A stretch of DNA of 48,639 bases, taken from positions 1 through 48,639 of the IMG/VR virus record IMGVR_UViG_2778261184_000002. One strand, 5' to 3'. Of the stretch, positions 1-43,594 are shown in pieces. Each line of letters opens with the position of its first letter. Within the stretch, counting starts at the first letter, position 1. Source of the DNA: a virus (taxonomy: Duplodnaviria; Heunggongvirae; Uroviricota; Caudoviricetes). Under the pieces are notes generated by a model. It searched no databases. It worked only from the letters and a program-made list of their open reading frames with translations, and was not told the DNA's origin. A program made the translations under genes and the position numbers.

Positions 1-557
1 TCCTATATACATTATCTATTGTTTTTGTTGGTGGTAATGTCCCGTTCTTTGATAATTGGATTGTATCCCCGTGGGTTTATCACGTTGTAATCCCATTTGT
101 TTATGGAGTATTTGCATCTGTGTTAGCTCCTATTCTCACACTGAAGATATCTAAGCTAACAAGTAAATTATACACTGAAATAAGATATTTAGATGAAGCT
201 GCTGATTATGATAAAAGAATAGAATTGCAAAGAAAGAAAACAAAGTTAAATCAAGCAACCAATGACGCTAAATATTCAAAACAAATCTTAGATGAAAATG
301 AAAATAAACTTAATGACCTAGCTAAGAAACAGCGAGAAATTTGCGGCGCGATAAAACTATTGCATACTGATGTTGGCAGTATTATTGAGCTATATAAAAA
401 TAAGGGGGTTAGCATTGAATCTCCGCAAGATTTATGTGATTTTATAGTCGCTATAAAAAGCACATCATTCTATAATGATGACAAGCATTTTAATAAATTG
501 GTGTCTGATATTTCCAGTTTGTTTGATAATACTGGAATTGATCTTTCAAAAAAATGA
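1..557 (+). CDS. 5'-truncated CDS running off the window start: hydrophobic segment followed by a K/E/N-rich coiled-coil-like tail; function unknown
   Basis: Frame of ORF 120..557 stays open back to nt 3 (IVFVGGNVPFFDNWIVSPWVYHVVIPFVYGVFASVLAPIL...); strongly AT-rich unlike neighbours; hairpin terminator follows. Confidence 0.4.
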   Translation, partial: LYTLSIVFVGGNVPFFDNWIVSPWVYHVVIPFVYGVFASVLAPILTLKISKLTSKLYTEIRYLDEAADYDKRIELQRKKTKLNQATNDAKYSKQILDENENKLNDLAKKQREICGAIKLLHTDVGSIIELYKNKGVSIESPQDLCDFIVAIKSTSFYNDDKHFNKLVSDISSLFDNTGIDLSKK

Positions 558-4714: not shown

Positions 4715-4898
4715 AATGGCAGCCTCCTTTTGCTAATTTAAGGAGCTACCGCGTGAGGTTCCAATCTCAATGGCGGTAGCACTGACTGGGTTGGAACTAC
4801 CGGCGCAAAAGGGAACCGGCCTGCCTTTCGGCAGCCCAGCCAGCACTACCATTGATCTCTGAGCTAAACGCTACGTATGGCTGTGCGATGGCATGACA

Positions 4899-4921
4899 CA
4901 AAAAAAGACGCTTTCGGCGTC
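4899..4921 (-). terminator. Rho-independent terminator (minus strand)
   Basis: GACGC-tttcg-GCGTC hairpin followed on the minus strand by T7. Confidence 0.5.
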
Positions 4922-5028
4922 TGTGTCGCCTTTTGCATTATCCGGGGTTCCAATCCCGGCACCCGTTTTTCTAAGGTGCCGTAGAAATATACCCCACGAT
5001 AATGCCAGGGCGCAACTGTGTGTTTTCT

Positions 5029-5533: not shown

Positions 5534-6105
5534 ATCATTTCTTGCACCGTCTGATAGAGCGTCATCTCTTCGGCATTGTGCCGTATAAAATCTGCTTTCC
5601 CGCCTATTTTTCCATCAGCATGAACAGGAACCAACCAGGGATATTGTTCGCGGATCTCTGCTGGCGCTGCGTGCTGGTGGTGCCATTTACACAAAGGGAG
5701 AACGTATTTATGGGCATCTTTAGCCGTTCTGCCAAATATGTGGTGGAGAGATACGACAGGGCTATGCTTCCCGTGAAGATGGCAGGCAATACAGGGGATT
5801 TTGCCTATAGCGTCCTGTATCCGGCGCTCTTCTGCTGTGAGTGATCTCCCTTTTAATCCGCGTGACGTGCGCGTTTTTTTGGGGAGGGCAGACGCCGCTC
5901 TCTCTCTTCTGCGCTGTTCACTTTGCCTCGCTTTTTCAAGTTTCTTTTGACGATATTCAGGCGATGCGGCTTTTTCCCTTGCGCGTTGCTGCTGGCGTTG
6001 AGCCTGCTGAAGACGTTTTGCCCTTTGCTCTTCCCGCCATTCCGGATCAGCCAGTTTTTGCATGGCTTTTTGTCTCTGTTTCTCCCAATAACTCTGTCTC
6101 TGCAT
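5527..6105 (-). CDS. ref: Ref-like HNH endonuclease (P1 recombination enhancement function family)
   Basis: 192 aa; highly charged R/Q/E/K-rich N-terminal ~80 aa followed by HNH-type motif CIACHLHG...SLHHIFGRT...LPLCKWHHQ; operator-like site upstream, as for P1 ref. Confidence 0.7.
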   Translation of the reverse strand: MQRQSYWEKQRQKAMQKLADPEWREEQRAKRLQQAQRQQQRAREKAASPEYRQKKLEKARQSEQRRRERAASALPKKTRTSRGLKGRSLTAEERRIQDAIGKIPCIACHLHGKHSPVVSLHHIFGRTAKDAHKYVLPLCKWHHQHAAPAEIREQYPWLVPVHADGKIGGKADFIRHNAEEMTLYQTVQEMMN

Positions 6106-6152
6106 GTTGGCTGCCTCTTACTTATCAGCGATTTTTTATGATTGATCATATT

Positions 6153-6182
6153 TGTTAGATATTCAAAATTGATTTTCTAACA
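6153..6182 (-). promoter_or_regulatory. 30-bp composite operator-like site (TGTTAGAAAATCAATT-N7-TCTAACA on minus strand)
   Basis: Full motif plus inverted TGTTAGA half-site at fixed 23-nt offset; upstream of ref-like gene. Confidence 0.5.
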
Positions 6183-27543: not shown

Positions 27544-27936
27544 CTACCAGCGATATAAGCGAACGACGTGTTTTACCTTAGCGATCCACTTACCACGTGA
27601 GTTATTAATTACGGCCTGCGCCACCTTTAAGCTGACTTCAAAATCAGCCTTACGACCATCAGAATCCACCAGCGTTGCACCGTCTATTTCCGGCAGGCTT
27701 AAATAATCCTGTTCTACCTCTAATGGCATTGACGGCTCTCTGAATGGTGTCAATTGCCGAGCTTCCCAGATAAAGCGAACTCTCAATCCCCTATAAGCCA
27801 TTACCATGTAGCCTGTTATCGTGCTCTTATGGCCTGCCTCAGTACGCGCAGCATTACACGATACAATCTTACAGGTGACGATATTCCACTCCACATTGGA
27901 GACTTCGTGAATGCTTAATTTTGTTGTCTCGTACAT
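27544..27936 (-). CDS. Hypothetical protein
   Basis: 130-aa ORF; start overlaps upstream stop. Confidence 0.45.
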   Translation of the reverse strand: MYETTKLSIHEVSNVEWNIVTCKIVSCNAARTEAGHKSTITGYMVMAYRGLRVRFIWEARQLTPFREPSMPLEVEQDYLSLPEIDGATLVDSDGRKADFEVSLKVAQAVINNSRGKWIAKVKHVVRLYRW

Positions 27937-28511
27937 CAGAATGCCTCCCAGTCAGTTGCGATAATATCCACGCCAGTTGCGAACCAGTCTGTCTGCGCCT
28001 GTAAATCCCCATTCATCATTACCAGGCGAGGCATAACCATCACATCGCACCCTTCCACAATATCGAATGCCTCTTCCGGCAAGAATTCGAAGAGCTTTTC
28101 TTTGCTGCCAATGCTGCCACGGAACATCGATAAATAGCTCCCTTTAGGCCATGATGCCCGGCGGGCATCCAGCCCCTTCATCATCCAGAACATGGCGGCA
28201 GAAAAATTGATGTTCTTTTTGGCGATGAAAACATTATTGGCTTCTGTTTGCTTCAGAAACTTAATTAGCCTTGCCATCGACTCGGATAACGCTACGTATG
28301 GCTCATGATTGGCTGCGGACACGCTCACACCATGTAATCCAACACTGACTACCGTCATATCGCCGCTTTGAGCGGTTTCAATGTTGACACCTTTGCGAAC
28401 TAACGAGGCATAAAGTTCCTCTCGCTTTTGTGTCCAGCGTTCCCGCTGACCGATGAAGTCACTCAATATGAGATCTGCTTCTGCATACGCGTTATCGTTC
28501 GCCGTTAACAT
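27936..28511 (-). CDS. Protein with C-terminal DUF2829-like domain
   Basis: C-terminal half FSAAMFWMMKGLDARRASWPKGSYL...DIIATDWEAF. Confidence 0.45.
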   Translation of the reverse strand: MLTANDNAYAEADLILSDFIGQRERWTQKREELYASLVRKGVNIETAQSGDMTVVSVGLHGVSVSAANHEPYVALSESMARLIKFLKQTEANNVFIAKKNINFSAAMFWMMKGLDARRASWPKGSYLSMFRGSIGSKEKLFEFLPEEAFDIVEGCDVMVMPRLVMMNGDLQAQTDWFATGVDIIATDWEAF

Positions 28512-28964
28512 AACGTCTCCTTTTTACACGCGCGACCATCCCTCGGTTAAACCGATAGAGATGTCGAAACTTCGTATTAATTAAGGGTTACAGCCTGAGC
28601 GGCTATATGATGAATTGAAAGGAGTTGTGGCGGTGGTGCCTCCACCTGCCAGGTTAGCCACTCCTGGCGACGTCACTTATCAGAACGTAGTGAATGAAAA
28701 TGGCTTCGTCACGAGCGCATAGCCGCAATTACCACAACGGAAACGGCGCTCACGCTAATTAAACGCCTTTTCCTGTTGTGCGCCGTACTCTTCCGGCTGT
28801 CACACCGAATCGCCAGGATGGTGAGTCCTCGGTCCGACGATATGAACGGGGCTTGCACATTCCGGCCACCTGGTTTGTTGCCTGAGCTAGGGGAAAAGGT
28901 AACCCCTTTAACGTCACCAGACCGCTAACGACGCATGTGCCAGACGCCGTGTTACAACCAAATA

Positions 28965-29040
28965 TGGTGGCCCCTACCGGATTTGAACCGATGACCGTGC
29001 GATTATGAGTCGCCTGCTCTAACCACTGAGCTAAGGGGCC
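28965..29040 (-). tRNA. tRNA-Ile (anticodon CAU, lysidine-type ileX-like)
   Basis: GGCCCCTTAGCTCAGTGGTTAGAGCAGGCGACTCATAATCGC...GGTTCAAATCC...GGGGCCACCA; clean cloverleaf, encoded CCA. Confidence 0.9.
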
Positions 29041-29482
29041 AATTAGTTTTTATTTTCGACGTCTGAGATTCTTCGTAACTTGTTCTATTCCGTAGACGAT
29101 CACAAGTAGAAACAGCAAAGACCATCCAGGGTTCTTATCGATATACGTCCAAAAATCCATCATTAGTTCCTGTGTTCACCTTACAGCACTGCCACTGAAA
29201 CCAACTATCCGAACAGTAGTTGTCACTCAATAGACGTGACGTATTTATTAGGTTGCGGTGCCGGGTGCCTCCCGGTGCCTGGCGAAGGTTGCACGCCAGG
29301 CGGGTGAGTATCCACAGAAGGCCGACTGTCAGTCTCAACCTTGACCCGCGTGCGCTTAGCCGCATTCACCGCAATGGTAAGAGCACTTGGCTGGCTGGGC
29401 GGCGATGATGCCTGTACGCATTTGGTGATCCGGTTCTGCTTCCGGCATTCGCTTAATTAGCCAAATACTCTTAACGTTGCGC

Positions 29483-29569
29483 TGGCGGAGAGTAATGGAA
29501 TCGAACCATCATCGCTTGCGCAATGGGACGGTTTTCAAGACCGCTTGAGCACCATGCTCCCTACTCTCC
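29483..29569 (-). tRNA. tRNA-Ser (anticodon UGA), class II with long variable arm
   Basis: GGAGAGT...CGGTCTTGAAAACCG anticodon arm, T-arm GATGGTTCGATTCCATT, acceptor ACTCTCC-G-CCA. Confidence 0.85.
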
Positions 29570-29714
29570 GGCCGTTGTGGTGGCCGGTACTGAATCTCCG
29601 GCATACGGTGCAGCCAATTAGGACTACGGACGATCACCGCTCGCGAAAGGGAAGGTTTGCGGCCGCATTTCCCTAACATCCAAGAAAGCTATCGCATCAG
29701 TCTGCGAATCCACC

Positions 29715-29806
29715 ACAACGTTGAGAACACTGGTTGTCACGCTGCAACGCAACATTTATTCGTAGATTGGGATATGACCCCGTTACGTCAGTGTTCTCAA
29801 CGTTGT
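29715..29806. repeat. Perfect 18-bp inverted repeat (ACAACGTTGAGAACACTG / CAGTGTTCTCAACGTTGT) with 56-bp loop
   Basis: Arms 29715-29732 and 29789-29806, inside the tRNA cluster. Confidence 0.8.
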
Positions 29807-30034
29807 AGTACCGGTTACGGTTCCGGCCAGGCCTCTTCCTCAACGGGGTATTCTCCATACGGACTACCGTTTATTGGTCGTTCCTGCGGTTTATGTTGTG
29901 AAGCCAGATGCTTATCTTCTGGTTGCTTCAAAGAGCTGCACTTCATCACAACGGTAAGGGTACTTCGTAGGGATTCGAACCCTCTGCCAAGCACGGCGAT
30001 CTCCGACGTCGCAAAATACCCTTACCTGTTGTGT

Positions 30035-30110
30035 TGGTGCCGATTAACGGACTCGAACCGCTGACATCCTGCTTACAAGGCAGGCGCTCTACCAACTGAG
30101 CTAAACCGGC
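30035..30110 (-). tRNA. tRNA-Thr (anticodon UGU)
   Basis: GCCGGTTTAGCTCAGTTGGTAGAGCGCCTGCCTTGTAAGCAGG...GGTTCGAGTCC...ATCGGCACCA. Confidence 0.9.
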
Positions 30111-30112
30111 AT

Positions 30113-30189
30113 TGGCGATGGTGGGTGGATTCGAACCACCGACCGACAGCTTAGAAGGCTGCTGCTCTATCCTACTGAGCTACACCATC
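30113..30189 (-). tRNA. tRNA-Arg (anticodon UCU; reads rare AGA/AGG)
   Basis: GATGGTGTAGCTCAGTAGGATAGAGCAGCAGCCTTCTAAGCTGT...GGTGGTTCGAATCCACC-CACCATC-G-CCA. Confidence 0.9.
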
Positions 30190-30693
30190 ACTTGGCCGGG
30201 TACGTCTCCGGCGAGGGCTTCCACCTCCGTATGCTTTTCGGCGCACCGCGCCCTGGCTGCAATTCAGTAACAGGGGATGCATAACCCTGGCTTCCAGCGT
30301 GATTAGCGCCTTCAGCATGACGGGATATACCCGTAACCAACAAACTTTCCCATATACCATCAAACAATGGCTGTTACGCGGGAGGGACGTAACAGGTAAG
30401 GGCGCTGACCAGAAAGACCTGACCCTTCTCATTCATCTGGTTAATCACACCAGCGCCCTTGCCTGTTATGCCTCCCCGTTCCCTAATACACAGACGGGGA
30501 CACTCTGCGGTCGATTTTTTGACGGGGGACGACTCATACCCCGTGGCGTCTGGCTTCTTAGGCCGCTACCATCATCAGATCATCGTTTGCATTTACTTTA
30601 ATGGTCGGTTTCTAAACCGCCGCAAAGCCGCTAACCATGACGAAAACCCTAAAAAAGCCCACCCGAAGATGGGCAAATACGCTACATCTCACA

Positions 30694-30772
30694 CAAGAAA
30701 GAAGCCGACTGCCTGAGCTGGATTCACTTTCAAATGCCCGCAGAAAGGGAACACAAGTCGGCTTCTTTCTTG
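30694..30772. repeat. Perfect 17-bp inverted repeat (CAAGAAAGAAGCCGACT / AGTCGGCTTCTTTCTTG) with 45-bp loop
   Basis: Arms 30694-30710 and 30756-30772 in ORF-free DNA downstream of the tRNA cluster. Confidence 0.8.
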
Positions 30773-31256
30773 ATGCGGCACTCTCTCCGCCCGTCACCGC
30801 TCTGTCTCGGTTGTCGCGTTTGCCACGCCAGCCGTAACGAGGTTTAAAGTCTTTGCACGTTTCCATCACTCGACTGCCGTCTGTGGCTGTTCGTTGCAGC
30901 GGGGGTGCCTCCCCCTGGGGATATCCCCGGCCTTACCCCATTCTTTCAAGACACAATGCAAGGCCGCATCCGCATAGGTGCATTACCGCAACATTAAGGA
31001 GACTTAGGGCAAAAGGTAATCGCCACAAAAAAATCCCTATGCCTCCTTAATGTTGAGGATGTGCATTGATGATGATTCGATGCGGCGAGTCCCGTTACTC
31101 TCTGCCGGACCATCATCAATGAACATCTTAAAAAGACCTTCCGTGGCTCAACATGTCTTGTCGTTTACTCCGTAAAGTGCTCTCTCTGAAACCACTTTAC
31201 GCACTAAACCTGCTGAACTTTGGCTTGCTCGGTGCCAAAGCGAGTCCCTGTATGCA

Positions 31257-31273
31257 TGTAATTTTCTAACACT
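31257..31273 (-). promoter_or_regulatory. Operator-like motif copy (TGTTAGAAAATTACA, minus strand)
   Basis: Consensus match in ORF-free region. Confidence 0.4.
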
Positions 31274-31421
31274 TTAATTTGTTATTTGCTGGTGGGCGAA
31301 CAACAACCAATAAGTGACTATCAAGCCCAGCAAGCGAAATGTGGCAACGCTCCACCAGCAAGGAAAATTCTAAGTTAAGTTACTCTCACAATCAATATGT
31401 TCGTTTGGTGAAATTAGATTT

Positions 31422-31438
31422 CTAACACATTATTTCCC
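31422..31438 (-). promoter_or_regulatory. Operator-like motif copy (TGTTAGAAATCTAAT, minus strand), internally palindromic
   Basis: Overlaps stop codon of ORF 31430..32650. Confidence 0.4.
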
Positions 31439-32650
31439 ATAAAGATCTTCTACGCCCCCATTCTTCTTGTCCCATTCGTTAGCCCACACCCGGCAGGCAT
31501 CAATAATTTCTTGACGACGGTCGCCCTGCATAAAGGGGATGCTTTCATGAAAACTACTTGGGATACAGGCCACGCTGAATACGGTATCAAACGCAGTCTG
31601 TTTGATAGCTTCCAACGTCTCTGGGCGCATTTTCAATTCATCGATCGGCGCATCCTTAGAGTCCATAATCCGGCGATGCAGGCGCGGGAAATCAGTCTCC
31701 AGGTACGCCATAATTTTATCTGCCAGGCATTCGTCTATATCGGTATTCCAGTCCGTTTCGAAGCCGGGCAGGCGATAGTAAAGCGGCGTTCCCCATACTG
31801 ATGGGATCACATCCATCGTCAGCAGGCGGTTGGTTCTAATTTGTTGATGGTAATTAGCCGTCAACAGAGCTTCACCACGCTGACCAGTCTCCGCAACCAG
31901 ACCATGCGGGTACTCATGGATATAGGCAATAGCATCCACCCCGTCATACATGAGCGGGAATGTCTCTGGCCTTTGTCCCATACCACAAGCGCGGTTCAGA
32001 TCATGACCAAGCTGTGAACACTCTCGTTTCAGCGTTTCAATAATGTTCTGCGCTGCTGCTAACTTTTTACGCAGTGTGACACCTTCGCCTTGATACTTAA
32101 TGCACTGCTGATTCAGCTCTGTTAAACGCTCTTTTAGTTCCCGACGCTCTCTTTTCAGCGCACGGTTATCCTTCTCCGCAACATCCAGTCGTTTTGACAG
32201 ACTGGCTGGATAGTCTTTTTTGTAACGACTCAAATCGGCTTCTGCGGATTTGCGCAGTGTGTTTGCCTGTTCAAGACGCGCTTCCAGATTGCCGATCTCA
32301 CTACGCATATTCGCGGCAAATTGATTAACAGCATTGCCAAGACTTTCAACTGTCGCTGATACGCCTGTGACTTGTGAAAAACGGATCAAGCCATCATTAA
32401 CGGCTTGTTGATATTCCTCAAACTGATCCACCAGCTTGTTGTAATCAACCGTCCCTTCCTCAAGTAGCTGGTTGATCTCCGCGACCAGGTTATCAGTAGT
32501 GGCAATGACGCTCTCATGTAGCCGTCTAGACAGGTCATCCCCCGGATTCCGCTTTTGAATAAGGGCGATCTGTGTCCGCAGCGTTTCAATCGCGGCTGAG
32601 ATGATTTCCAGATTAGAAGTATCAGTTTGTTGACTCATTGCAGTTCCCAT
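31430..32650 (-). CDS. Coiled-coil protein with C-terminal globular domain; function unknown
   Basis: 406-aa ORF (alternative start ATG 32638); heptad-rich N-terminal 220 aa; operator-like motif directly upstream. Confidence 0.5.
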   Translation of the reverse strand: MGTAMSQQTDTSNLEIISAAIETLRTQIALIQKRNPGDDLSRRLHESVIATTDNLVAEINQLLEEGTVDYNKLVDQFEEYQQAVNDGLIRFSQVTGVSATVESLGNAVNQFAANMRSEIGNLEARLEQANTLRKSAEADLSRYKKDYPASLSKRLDVAEKDNRALKRERRELKERLTELNQQCIKYQGEGVTLRKKLAAAQNIIETLKRECSQLGHDLNRACGMGQRPETFPLMYDGVDAIAYIHEYPHGLVAETGQRGEALLTANYHQQIRTNRLLTMDVIPSVWGTPLYYRLPGFETDWNTDIDECLADKIMAYLETDFPRLHRRIMDSKDAPIDELKMRPETLEAIKQTAFDTVFSVACIPSSFHESIPFMQGDRRQEIIDACRVWANEWDKKNGGVEDLYGK

Positions 32651-43267: not shown

Positions 43268-43400
43268 TTACGGCCTCACTAACAGGTTTAACAACCTGCT
43301 ACCCGCTGTCAAACAGGTGGCAGGACGTGACAGGGTTGACAGACTGGCGTTAGTGAAACCAGCAGGCCGAAGCCTCCCCATCACGCCCCACCATAATTCG
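43268..43400 (-). ncRNA. Candidate c4-like antisense/structured RNA region upstream of icd
   Basis: Nested inverted repeats (CCTCACTAAC/GTTAGTGAAA; CTGTCAA/TTGACAG; CAGGTGG) between operator-like site and icd start. Confidence 0.3.
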
Positions 43401-43594
43401 GGCGTAACGCGGTTTACGGACACAAAAATACCGCAATATCGGAAATCTGCGGTTGTCCGCACTAACATTCAGGCTGTCAAACCTGGTCGCAGAATTTGCT
43501 ACGACGGCATGAATATAAGCCTGAAAACATGGAAGATCAACTAAAAATTTCAGCAATGGATGACTTCAGTCGATGATGCAGATCATACATTCCG

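Follow-up and report, generated by a model that had tools for sequence, protein, structure and literature searches.

Why would a phage devote almost 3 kb of its genome to four tRNA genes set among long perfect hairpins, with hardly an open reading frame (ORF) between them? We addressed this question for positions 28512-31429 of IMG/VR virus record IMGVR_UViG_2778261184_000002, whose full stretch of 48,639 nucleotides we refer to as the window. The region extends exactly from the start codon of an ORF at 27936-28511 (minus strand) to the stop codon of an ORF at 31430-32650 (minus strand). A preliminary description of this DNA had suggested that the region may encode additional structured RNAs or be a recombination hotspot for the exchange of tRNA cassettes, and our comparisons support both suggestions. 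With a probability that we put at roughly 0.6, the region is an untranslated, repressor-controlled polycistronic RNA that would be processed into the four tRNAs and several small RNAs (sRNAs) resembling STnc100 and PasD.

The region is 94% identical to Escherichia phage D6 and piecewise 89-93% identical to phages P1, P7, RCS47 and SJ46, and it matches approximately 1,170 plasmids in PLSDB, 95 of which cover 80% or more of it. These identities and plasmid matches lead us to assign the window to a P1-like phage-plasmid of the D6 lineage. We propose that the region is the D6-lineage version of the P1 'tRNA region', the leader of the ban operon. The comparisons of tRNA and module content below draw on 73 related loci, consisting of 12 annotated relatives and 61 IMG/VR contigs, with L numbers given where individual loci need to be told apart.

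A tandem array of STnc100-like units

In a permissive Rfam scan, the STnc100 model (RF02076) matched positions 29254-29373 on the minus strand with 36.4 bits (E = 1e-6, model positions 31-147), below its gathering score of 47. Homologues in SfV (39.5 bits), ST64B (35.1 bits) and P1 (33.4 bits) also scored below this threshold. Applied to the whole window and its sub-regions, Rfam found nothing in the region beyond the tRNAs and this match; weak matches to miRNA, tmRNA and YrlA models were rejected as chance. The matched RNA, which we call unit B (29249-29378, minus strand), combines a closing stem (UUGCGGUG/CACCGCAA) with a hairpin P2 (UGCG-GCUAAG-CGCA) and a 5-bp hairpin with the loop AGGCA (CCGGG-AGGCA-CCCGG). 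An AGGCA hairpin of this kind, placed directly ahead of the 3' strand of the closing stem, is the hallmark of the units. The 97 kb that make up both strands of the window contain exactly three such hairpins. All three map to the minus strand of the region and have covarying stems (GGUGG/CCACC, CCGGG/CCCGG and GGGGG/CCCCC). Shuffled sequences contained 0.72 AGGCA hairpins on average, and 5 out of 200 reached three.

We trained a covariance model, R1, solely on 12 unit B homologues (P1-like loci together with SfV, ST64B, phiES15 and BUCT610) and ran it over the whole window with filters off. The top non-self matches were two units that had been left out of the training: unit A (28621-28741, minus strand; 49.1 bits, E = 4e-10), with closing stem GUUGUGG/CCACAAC and hairpin GGUGG-AGGCA-CCACC, and unit C (30890-30995, minus strand; 19.1 bits, E = 0.006), with closing stem GUUGCGG/CUGCAAC and hairpin GGGGG-AGGCA-CCCCC. 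Unit B itself, being part of the training alignment, scored 118 bits (E = 1.7e-26). Lower down the list are a degenerate unit D (29571-29722, minus strand; 15.3 bits, E = 0.05) and a possible reduced unit E (29892-29955, minus strand; 13.4 bits, E = 0.13; fold z = -1.5, closing stem GUUGUGA.GAAG/CUUCACAAC), while all remaining matches in the window have E > 0.2. Unit D has an 11-bp closing stem (CGUUGUGGUGG/CCACCACAACG; inverted repeat I13, 11 nt, 100% complementary), ends 2 nt ahead of the tRNA-Ser gene and has orthologous R1 matches in L012 and L009. Unit A is detected by R1 in all D6-like loci. The core architecture (closing stem, small 5' hairpin and 5-bp AGGCA hairpin abutting the 3' closing strand) is present in units A, B and C.

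Covariation supports the helices of the units. Among 28 distinct matches from 21 sources, 97% of helix cells are paired, compared with 31-52% when the partners are slid, in an alignment that was itself fitted to the model. At pair 8/206 of the closing stem, 14 sequences have CG and 14 have UA, and in the AGGCA hairpin both partners change at three pairs (GC, CG, UA). The AGGCA loop and the P2 hairpin are invariant in all 28 divergent sequences. If read on the opposite strand, 23 G·U cells in these helices would become A·C mismatches, in support of an RNA with the sense of the minus strand. The minus strand also carries every tRNA and every STnc100 and R1 match.

STnc100 and PasD are prophage sRNAs; both bind Hfq, they differ in their seeds, and they were detected by RIL-seq (in which interacting RNAs are ligated and sequenced; bioRxiv 10.64898/2026.05.13.724894). 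They have the same core as the window units, with a closing stem ..UGGUG/CACCA.., a GAAU junction and a CCGGGAGGCACCCGG hairpin adjoining the 3' closing strand. Both families are prophage-resident, with tRNAs and TerB/DUF3927 genes in their vicinity and with seed regions that vary. The window units differ from STnc100 in their scores (33-40 bits, homologues in other phages included, against a gathering score of 47), in having no terminator of their own (model positions ~165-206), and in standing in tandem within a tRNA operon, each after a hairpin that is outside the Rfam model. Several unit interiors contain CUCCUU-type anti-Shine-Dalgarno motifs. These motifs, together with the Hfq binding and RIL-seq detection of STnc100 and PasD, support a putative trans-acting sRNA role for the units.

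A hairpin family coupled to the units

The preliminary description had reported two long perfect hairpins and, between tRNA-Ser and tRNA-Thr, a fragment with a T-arm. Both hairpins are as described: hairpin 1 has 21-nt arms (29712-29732 and 29789-29809) that are 95% complementary, with 18 nt perfect and 56 nt between them, and hairpin 2 has 17-nt arms (30694-30710 and 30756-30772) that are 100% complementary, with 45 nt between. Folded as minus-strand RNA, they reach z = -6.5 and z = -4.5 against shuffles, respectively. Hairpins that are untranscribed and absent from relatives had been named as a sign against structured RNAs; as regards presence, hairpin 1 occurs in 64 related loci and hairpin 2 in nine D6-like loci. 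What did not hold up is the treatment of the three features as separate curiosities, as hairpin 1 and the T-arm element belong to one repeated family and hairpin 2 stands directly upstream of a conserved terminator.

In the window, this family has six members, long stem-loops that are all found on the minus strand. They have a common design, in which a 6-bp base (YAYAAC/GUUGYG), usually with one bulged A, is followed by NNUAAGRG/CYCUUANN, and the NN positions covary (GG/CC, GC/GC, GA/UC, AU/AU and GU/AC). Three to five of these paralogous hairpins have a multi-helix unit directly after them. Specifically, H0 (28729-28784; RNAfold -25.8 kcal/mol) precedes unit A; H2 (29363-29484; -46.1 kcal/mol), whose 3' arm contains UGCUCUUA, precedes unit B; H3, which is hairpin 1 with a 22-bp stem according to inverted repeat and folding (29708-29812), precedes unit D; H4, the T-arm element (29944-30038), precedes unit E; and H6 (30984-31060; CUCAAC-AUUAAGGAG.../...CUCCUUAAU-GUUG; -32.9 kcal/mol) precedes unit C. 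No unit follows H5 (30379-30479; CAUAAC-AGG-C-AAGGGCGCUG/...; -50.4 kcal/mol), whose 3' arm can alternatively form a hairpin at 30371-30395 (z = -5.4). Relatives show compensatory changes in H5 (U-A to C-G in ~43 P1-clade loci) and in H6 (two changes).

The GUUGYG in the 3' arm of the hairpin doubles, without exception, as the 5' strand of the closing stem of the next unit, which ends in CRCAAC. As this strand belongs to both helices, hairpin and closing stem would compete for it. The same arrangement is found beyond P1-like phages: a family hairpin stands ahead of the unit in SfV, ST64B, phiES15, BUCT610 and BUCT554, with the base and the bulged A in common with the window and with compensatory changes in the NN positions and arms. 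The order of hairpin and unit is thus kept in P1-like, lambdoid and epsilon15-like phages.

Hairpin 2 (30690-30776, minus strand; inverted repeat and folding, 17-19 bp stem) is not a member of this family and is limited to the nine D6-like loci; in P1, an unrelated 'dicF-like' body takes its position. We rejected a DicF identity for both, as Rfam gave no DicF match for the hairpin 2 and terminator region (30640-30780) at E ≤ 10 in the window or for the P1 'dicF-like region' at E ≤ 1. Two further imperfect hairpins on the minus strand, I4 (31053-31132; 27-nt inverted repeat, 81% complementary) and I7 (31163-31209; 22 nt, 82%), are conserved only among D6-like relatives.

A tRNA-like element inside hairpin H4

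The T-arm fragment was confirmed: GGGTTCGAATCCC is found on the minus strand at ~29968-29982, within 13-nt arms (29953-29965 and 30014-30026) that are 92% complementary. The region has five GGAWTCGAACC-type copies, of which four belong to the true tRNAs and the fifth to this fragment. As the preliminary description had stated, it does not form a cloverleaf, since ARAGORN does not call it at default or at 80% thresholds and the Rfam tRNA model does not match it at E ≤ 10. RNA folding places it inside H4, which has a closing stem of ~18 bp (z = -4.9 against shuffles). The interior combines a canonical T-arm, AGGG-UUCGAAU-CCCU (G53-C61, loop UUCGAAU), with a D-arm-like hairpin, GCGA-CGUCGGAGA-UCGC, that has GG in its loop. 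Just 12 nt separate the two, and the position of the anticodon arm is occupied by a 3-bp stub. The acceptor-like helix runs on as the closed ~18-bp stem (CCCUUACC paired with GGUAAGGG), without a free 3' end or CCA.

Such a combination is known from tRNA-like elements, including the YrlA/Y-RNA domain, mascRNA and viral tRNA-like structures, which likewise have a canonical T-loop, a GG D-loop and an acceptor-like helix. Given these three features together, a tRNA elbow could form in H4. The differences from those elements are the closed 18-bp stem, the lack of a free 3' end or CCA and the reduction of the anticodon arm to a stub. Rfam gave only weak YrlA matches (24-26 bits; gathering score 69), and these are located on the true tRNAs next to the element.

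Could the array be largely evolutionary debris, that is, decayed tRNAs and sRNA fragments left harmlessly behind by recombination in a tRNA hotspot, with hairpins as by-products of inverted duplication? The H4 interior does resemble a tRNA minus its anticodon arm, many relatives dispense with modules, and units D and E are degenerate. Moreover, the perfect stem of hairpin 1 is atypical, as all but a handful of the 64 relatives have one mismatch, and substitutions within its orthologues are no better than neutral (9 preserve pairing and 5 break it). Relaxed ARAGORN searches also add tRNA-like scraps, at a threshold rich in spurious calls: at 60% thresholds it makes 24 extra calls in the region, most of them spurious. 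However, in phage families with nothing else in common, compensatory changes keep the stems paired, which contradicts this explanation. The H4 stem encloses three unrelated interiors across relatives: two unrelated replacements, one in P7 and L011 and the other in L009, retain the stem with compensated arms (GGGUA/UACCC versus GAGCA/UGCUC), and the tRNA-like interior recurs in Enterobacter phage BUCT554 with four compensatory changes in the acceptor-like stem. Together with the invariance of the AGGCA loop and P2 in 28 sequences and the conserved hairpin-plus-unit order in three phage groups, these changes make debris an improbable explanation for the array.

A search of phage genomes for a full-length tRNA ancestor of the element returned only the P1-like copies and BUCT554. 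A pattern scan of viral contigs for H4-type stems returned the P7-type interior only, its gap limit of 60 excluding the 62-nt variant of the window. In BUCT554 (L082), an epsilon15-like podovirus of the genus Uetakevirus, the hairpin with tRNA-like cargo is followed by an STnc100-like unit and an intrinsic terminator (~1780-2140). This set lies in an intergenic region near the terminase and portal genes, with a second family hairpin upstream. Two further weak tRNA-like folds appear in the window when ARAGORN is run at 80% thresholds: 28835-28918 (minus strand, Ala-AGC), which contains CTGAGCTAGGGG, resembling the 5' part of tRNA-Ile, and 31281-31364 (minus strand, Ser-GCT), which is closed by a 10-bp perfect inverted repeat. 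These folds may be tRNA remnants or may have arisen by chance.

Exchange of interiors and modules

The proposed hotspot for cassette exchange finds computational support in the 73 loci, where both tRNAs and RNA modules come as discrete cassettes that differ from locus to locus. The loci carry either tRNA-Asn(GUU) or tRNA-Arg(UCU), with or without tRNA-Tyr(GUA) and tRNA-Ser(UGA). Unit B has three interior variants between invariant ends. The variant of the window is found in no other P1-like or D6-like locus that we retrieved; it is 93% identical to those of mEp460, SfV and SfIV and 86% identical to that of ST64B, with the similarity bounded by the unit ends. As hairpin, unit and tRNA interiors are all replaced between conserved stems, a conserved stem with a replaced interior is, on the evidence of the alignments, the rule at every level.

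Variable cargo between conserved ends is also a property of integron cassettes, and the CAAC/GUUG hairpins could in principle be single-stranded DNA recombination sites that fold like attC and capture tRNA or sRNA cassettes. The core of attC consists of R'' (RYYYAAC) and R' (GTTRRRY), with recombination at G|TT. The hairpins bear a superficial likeness to such sites in their ...AAC/GTT... base, in imperfect stems with an extra-helical base and in variable interiors of 50-120 nt, and modules are present or absent in the manner of cassettes. We nevertheless rejected this idea as very unlikely, given that neither the core consensus nor the junctions fit. The arm bases are CACAAC, CAUAAC or CUCAAC with GUUGUG(G/A) or GUUGCGG and do not follow RYYYAAC/GTTRRRY. 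The variant junctions lie several nucleotides beyond GTT (e.g. after ...CCGTTGTGATGAA), which points to homologous exchange rather than cleavage at G|TT. In addition, the G·U pairs favour an RNA of one strand. We know of no integron-type integrase in P1 or D6; the window was not searched for one.

Four tRNA genes and a shared chassis

ARAGORN finds exactly four tRNA genes in the 48.6-kb window, all of them inside the region and on the minus strand, in agreement with the preliminary description: tRNA-Ile2 (CAU, ileX-like; 28965-29040), the type II tRNA-Ser(UGA) (29483-29569), tRNA-Thr(UGU) (30035-30110) and tRNA-Arg(UCU) (30113-30189). CCA is encoded in all four. The P1 orthologue of the CAU tRNA is annotated as tRNA-Ile2 and is 89% identical to ileX. 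Three of the four, including tRNA-Thr and tRNA-Arg, match the Rfam tRNA model at 67-73 bits, while tRNA-Ser, which is not present in P1, SJ46 and others, matches only the tRNA-Sec model at 46.6 bits (gathering score 47).

The tRNA-Arg(UCU) gene has a counterpart of different identity in its relatives. The tRNA-Asn(GUU) of D6 (L001 3758-3833) is identical to it in acceptor stem and discriminator and shares almost all of its T-arm, and in the alignment the two differ only in the D-loop, where the Arg form has A20, and in the anticodon arm. Both D6 and P1 carry tRNA-Asn(GUU) on this chassis. We interpret this pattern as an apparent Asn/Arg identity switch on one tRNA chassis, as judged from sequence alignment.

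The four tRNAs read the A-ending codons AUA, AGA, ACA and UCA, whose frequencies in the ORFs of the window are 9.8, 5.3, 13.8 and 12.2 per 1000, respectively, about twice the E. coli averages. This doubled use of A-ending codons is compatible with the usual codon-supply role of phage tRNAs. The D6 record differs from our predictions in two respects. Three tRNA features (L001/L078, NC_050154.1 7145-7850 and ~6084-6159) are annotated on the plus strand, while ARAGORN places them on the minus strand, and no tRNA-Ile2(CAU) gene is annotated, while ARAGORN finds one at L001 2067-2142.

Coding potential of the region

Is the region really non-coding? The preliminary description saw no convincing ORF, which is nearly right. 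One plausible coding sequence must be added, a 37-aa ORF at 29050-29163 (minus strand) for a TciC-like membrane peptide, which lies directly upstream of tRNA-Ile, as does tciC in P1. By eye, and with no alignment statistic, it is patterned like P1 TciC (MGFWDFADKHP... versus MMDFWTYIDKNP...), and RefSeq annotates orthologous small coding sequences in L007 and L009. Compared with D6, tciA and tciB have been lost from the window. None of seven ORFs tested inside the region, including the TciC-like one, has a Pfam match.

An alternative would be that the plus strand is coding after all, as annotated in P1 with plp (a lipoprotein) and upl. The largest ORF of the region (29657-30064, plus strand; 135 aa) is indeed 97% identical to P1 Plp. 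However, it overlaps tRNA-Thr on the opposite strand, and it starts with TTG in the window and with a non-ATG codon in P1, where the translation begins with Leu. Its coding potential is also not conserved: the ORF is cut by stop codons in L009 and L011, frameshifted in L012, and truncated or interrupted by insertions in L003, L004, L008 and L010, and neither plp nor upl is annotated in the P7 record or in RefSeq plasmids. As it overlaps a tRNA gene and is disrupted in relatives, P1 plp is probably an annotation artefact, and we consider a protein-coding role for the region extremely improbable. In the P1 record (L002 4160-4729), the upl and plp coding sequences cover H2, unit D, hairpin 1 and the tRNA-like element.

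Regulatory context

In P1, the homologous DNA is annotated as the leader of the C1-repressed ban operon, in the order Pban with operator Oban, 'dicF-like region', tRNA-Asn, tRNA-Thr (with plp and upl on the opposite strand), tciABC, tRNA-Ile2 and ban, and the P7 record states explicitly that the operator controls the tRNAs. A transcriptome of P1vir found the ban-operon genes and tRNAs to be expressed in lytic growth and to respond to loss of hfq; plp, upl and RNAs of the region other than tRNAs go unmentioned there (bioRxiv 10.64898/2025.12.28.696737).

The window offers candidates for the corresponding signals. A sigma-70-like pattern, TTGATT-17-TAGAAT (31367-31395, minus strand), lies 35-63 nt downstream of the stop codon of the pmgS-like gene and is the putative start of the operon. 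It is bracketed by copies of an 18-bp asymmetric motif, AAATTAnnTTTCTAACAY: one copy, AAATTAGATTTCTAACAC, lies at 31411-31428 (plus strand) and a second, partial copy at 31263-31279. The window has 13 copies of the motif core TTTCTAACAC with at most one mismatch, where 3.0 are expected; 0 of 100 shuffles reached 13. The copies (e.g. at 6174, 9679, 21635, 23036, 31419, 32669, 43616 and 44814) are mostly intergenic, commonly have the AAATTAnn extension, and are also found upstream of c1 and of each of two C4 RNA loci. By analogy with the dispersed C1 operators of P1 (Op72 at Pban), these copies are probably a putative D6-type C1 operator set. With the P1 operator consensus, the motif has just the AATTT end in common.

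The only strong intrinsic terminator, GCCCAUC-UUCG-GGUGGGC followed by U6 (30651-30674, minus strand), lies directly downstream of hairpin 2. It is ~96% conserved in all P1-like loci, with unrelated sequence upstream.

This terminator raises the question of whether the hairpin-plus-unit pairs act in cis, as put- or nut-like antiterminators or attenuators that would allow transcription to cross the terminator, escape Rho and express the tRNAs and lpa or ban. As a rule, an operon that is not translated must be protected from Rho, as is the case for rrn operons and CRISPR arrays. Unit C is placed after the putative promoter and before the terminator, which in P1 is conserved despite a different upstream sequence, and the GUUGYG strand with its two competing helices resembles an expression platform. 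Furthermore, in the lambdoid phages SfV, ST64B, phiES15 and PhiR29_1, the hairpin and unit stand in the early-left region, after the repressor gene and before an intrinsic terminator and kil/gam-type genes. The corresponding place is occupied by nutL-N in lambda and by putL in HK022. In SfV, however, a search for PL operators upstream of the homologue found no words in common with OR. Several 3' arms also contain UGCUCUUA or UGCUCUUU, which match the boxA consensus.

The likeness to put is one of context: as with HK022 putL and putR, the lambdoid homologues are structured RNAs of the early-left region that precede a terminator and have no evident dedicated protein close by. However, put consists of two stems in ~70 nt and is like the unit neither in sequence nor in architecture, and we rejected an identity with put RNA after finding that the HK022 genome has no AGGCA hairpin or R1 match and that its putL sequence is unrelated. 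A boxA (NusB/E) reading of UGCUCUUA in the hairpin arms was also set aside and remains a lead only, as the octamer is near chance frequency (13 in the window against ~6 expected by rough estimate) and is base-paired in the hairpins. Family members are, moreover, documented as discrete Hfq-bound sRNAs, and several copies per 3 kb would be unnecessary for a put-like role, given that put acts over 10 kb (PMC9378689). Overall, we regard cis-acting antitermination or attenuation, the main rival of our proposal, as an unlikely function of the array.

A bolder variant is that the hairpin and AGGCA unit together form an unrecognised class of cis-acting RNA switch, in which toggling of GUUGYG would control elongation, termination or processing of untranslated phage operons, with the tRNA-like interior as a handle for RNase P or elbow recognition. 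We consider this doubtful. If true, it would amount to a second, put-independent and RNA-only system of antitermination or attenuation in P1-like, lambdoid and epsilon15-like phages.

The two C4 antisense-RNA loci mentioned above (Rfam; 4769-4979 and 43313-43518, both minus strand) are separate: one has an adjacent isrK, the other an a1/b1 target element. Two C4-type modules in one element are unusual, as P1 has one immI locus. In ST64B (L075), an isrK sRNA (13-89, minus strand; 64 bits) lies ~2.4 kb from the STnc100-like unit, and the window, like ST64B, contains both isrK and STnc100-like elements.

A model for the array and its neighbours

The array is flanked upstream by the pmgS-like gene (31430-32650, minus strand) and downstream by a homologue of D6 orf6 (27936-28511, minus strand), followed by orf5, lpa and pacAB. 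The orf6 homologue, immediately downstream of the array, has a Tad2-like domain (Thoeris anti-defence 2; Pfam PF11195, 38.7 bits, E = 1.5e-9). Given this neighbour, the tRNA and sRNA array may belong to an early counter-defence operon.

We propose that one long minus-strand precursor starts at the operator-flanked putative promoter just downstream of pmgS, passes the intrinsic terminator, crosses the array and enters the Tad2-like gene, orf5 and lpa, so that these elements would be co-transcribed. The precursor would contain the four tRNAs and, in tandem, two kinds of module, the CAAC/GUUG stem-loops and the AGGCA units of ~110-130 nt. Host RNases would cut it: RNase P and RNase E would act on the tRNAs, and the perfect 17-22 bp stems would be cut by RNase III. 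The long stems would serve as processing or stability elements. The released units could then act as trans-acting sRNAs whose replaceable interior provides target recognition. At the DNA level, the conserved stems may supply short homologies through which interiors and modules are exchanged among P1-like, lambdoid and epsilon15-like temperate phages.

Several observations weigh against this proposal. The Rfam STnc100 model misses units A and C at E ≤ 10 and leaves unit B under its gathering threshold, and we therefore regard the units as relatives of STnc100 and not as members by the Rfam criterion. Hfq-dependent sRNAs normally need a terminator and U-tail. Units A, B and C of the window have neither directly after them, unlike their lambdoid counterparts: a terminator follows the unit in SfV and phiES15, as in BUCT554, and a U-run follows it in some P1-like variants. 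Joint minimum-free-energy folds usually keep the hairpin, often at the expense of the closing stem of the unit, and units D and E are marginal by their E-values. The near-neutral substitutions of hairpin 1 belong here as well. As for expression, the promoter-like site is a single, weak sigma-70-like match in 28300-31700, and the putative operators were assigned from the over-representation of their motif.

Comparison with known systems and significance

The closest known system is the ban leader of P1 and P7, with direct homology of 89-93% over window positions 28779-29040 and 29695-30677 and the same order of tRNAs, hairpin 1, T-arm element, H5, terminator and unit B, preceded by a repressor-controlled promoter. 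The D6-lineage array differs in its location (between pmgS and orf6-orf5-lpa, whereas the P1 array lies between dmt and ban), in two extra units (A and C), in hairpin 2 replacing the dicF-like body, in tRNA-Arg(UCU) replacing tRNA-Asn(GUU), in the presence of tRNA-Ser and in the loss of tciA and tciB. A broader parallel is provided by the tRNA cluster of phage T4, with its stable RNAs C and D, and by the RNase III processing hairpins of T7. As in those phages, the proposed precursor mixes tRNAs with small stable RNAs and has paralogous processing hairpins between cistrons, although there is no homology. The window differs in that its hairpins enclose replaceable cargo and that its units other than tRNAs have Hfq-binding sRNAs as relatives.

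Both the operon and its tRNAs are already known from P1, and STnc100 and PasD are established sRNAs; we found no description of structured RNAs in the P1 ban leader in the database records examined or in the accessible literature. Within these sources, the following appear undescribed: the tandem array of units inside a tRNA operon; the covarying CAAC/GUUG family with replaceable cargo and a fixed coupling to the unit in three phage groups; the structurally conserved tRNA-like cargo; and the Asn/Arg swap on one chassis.

P1 is among the best-studied phages, yet ~2 kb of its ban leader are annotated as empty or as the doubtful ORFs plp and upl, and the same holds for the 2.9 kb in D6-like phage-plasmids, which are common in E. 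coli, Salmonella and Klebsiella. Reading the region as an array of RNA modules corrects this annotation and connects the tRNA region of P1 with the leaders, rich in sRNAs, of Stx and other lambdoid prophages. In addition, it provides testable candidates for phage sRNAs or for RNA-based control of elongation. The conserved stems with swapped interiors are an example of how phages re-tool non-coding cargo and, given the adjoining Tad2-like gene, the array may bear on the escape of these phages from host defences that target tRNAs.

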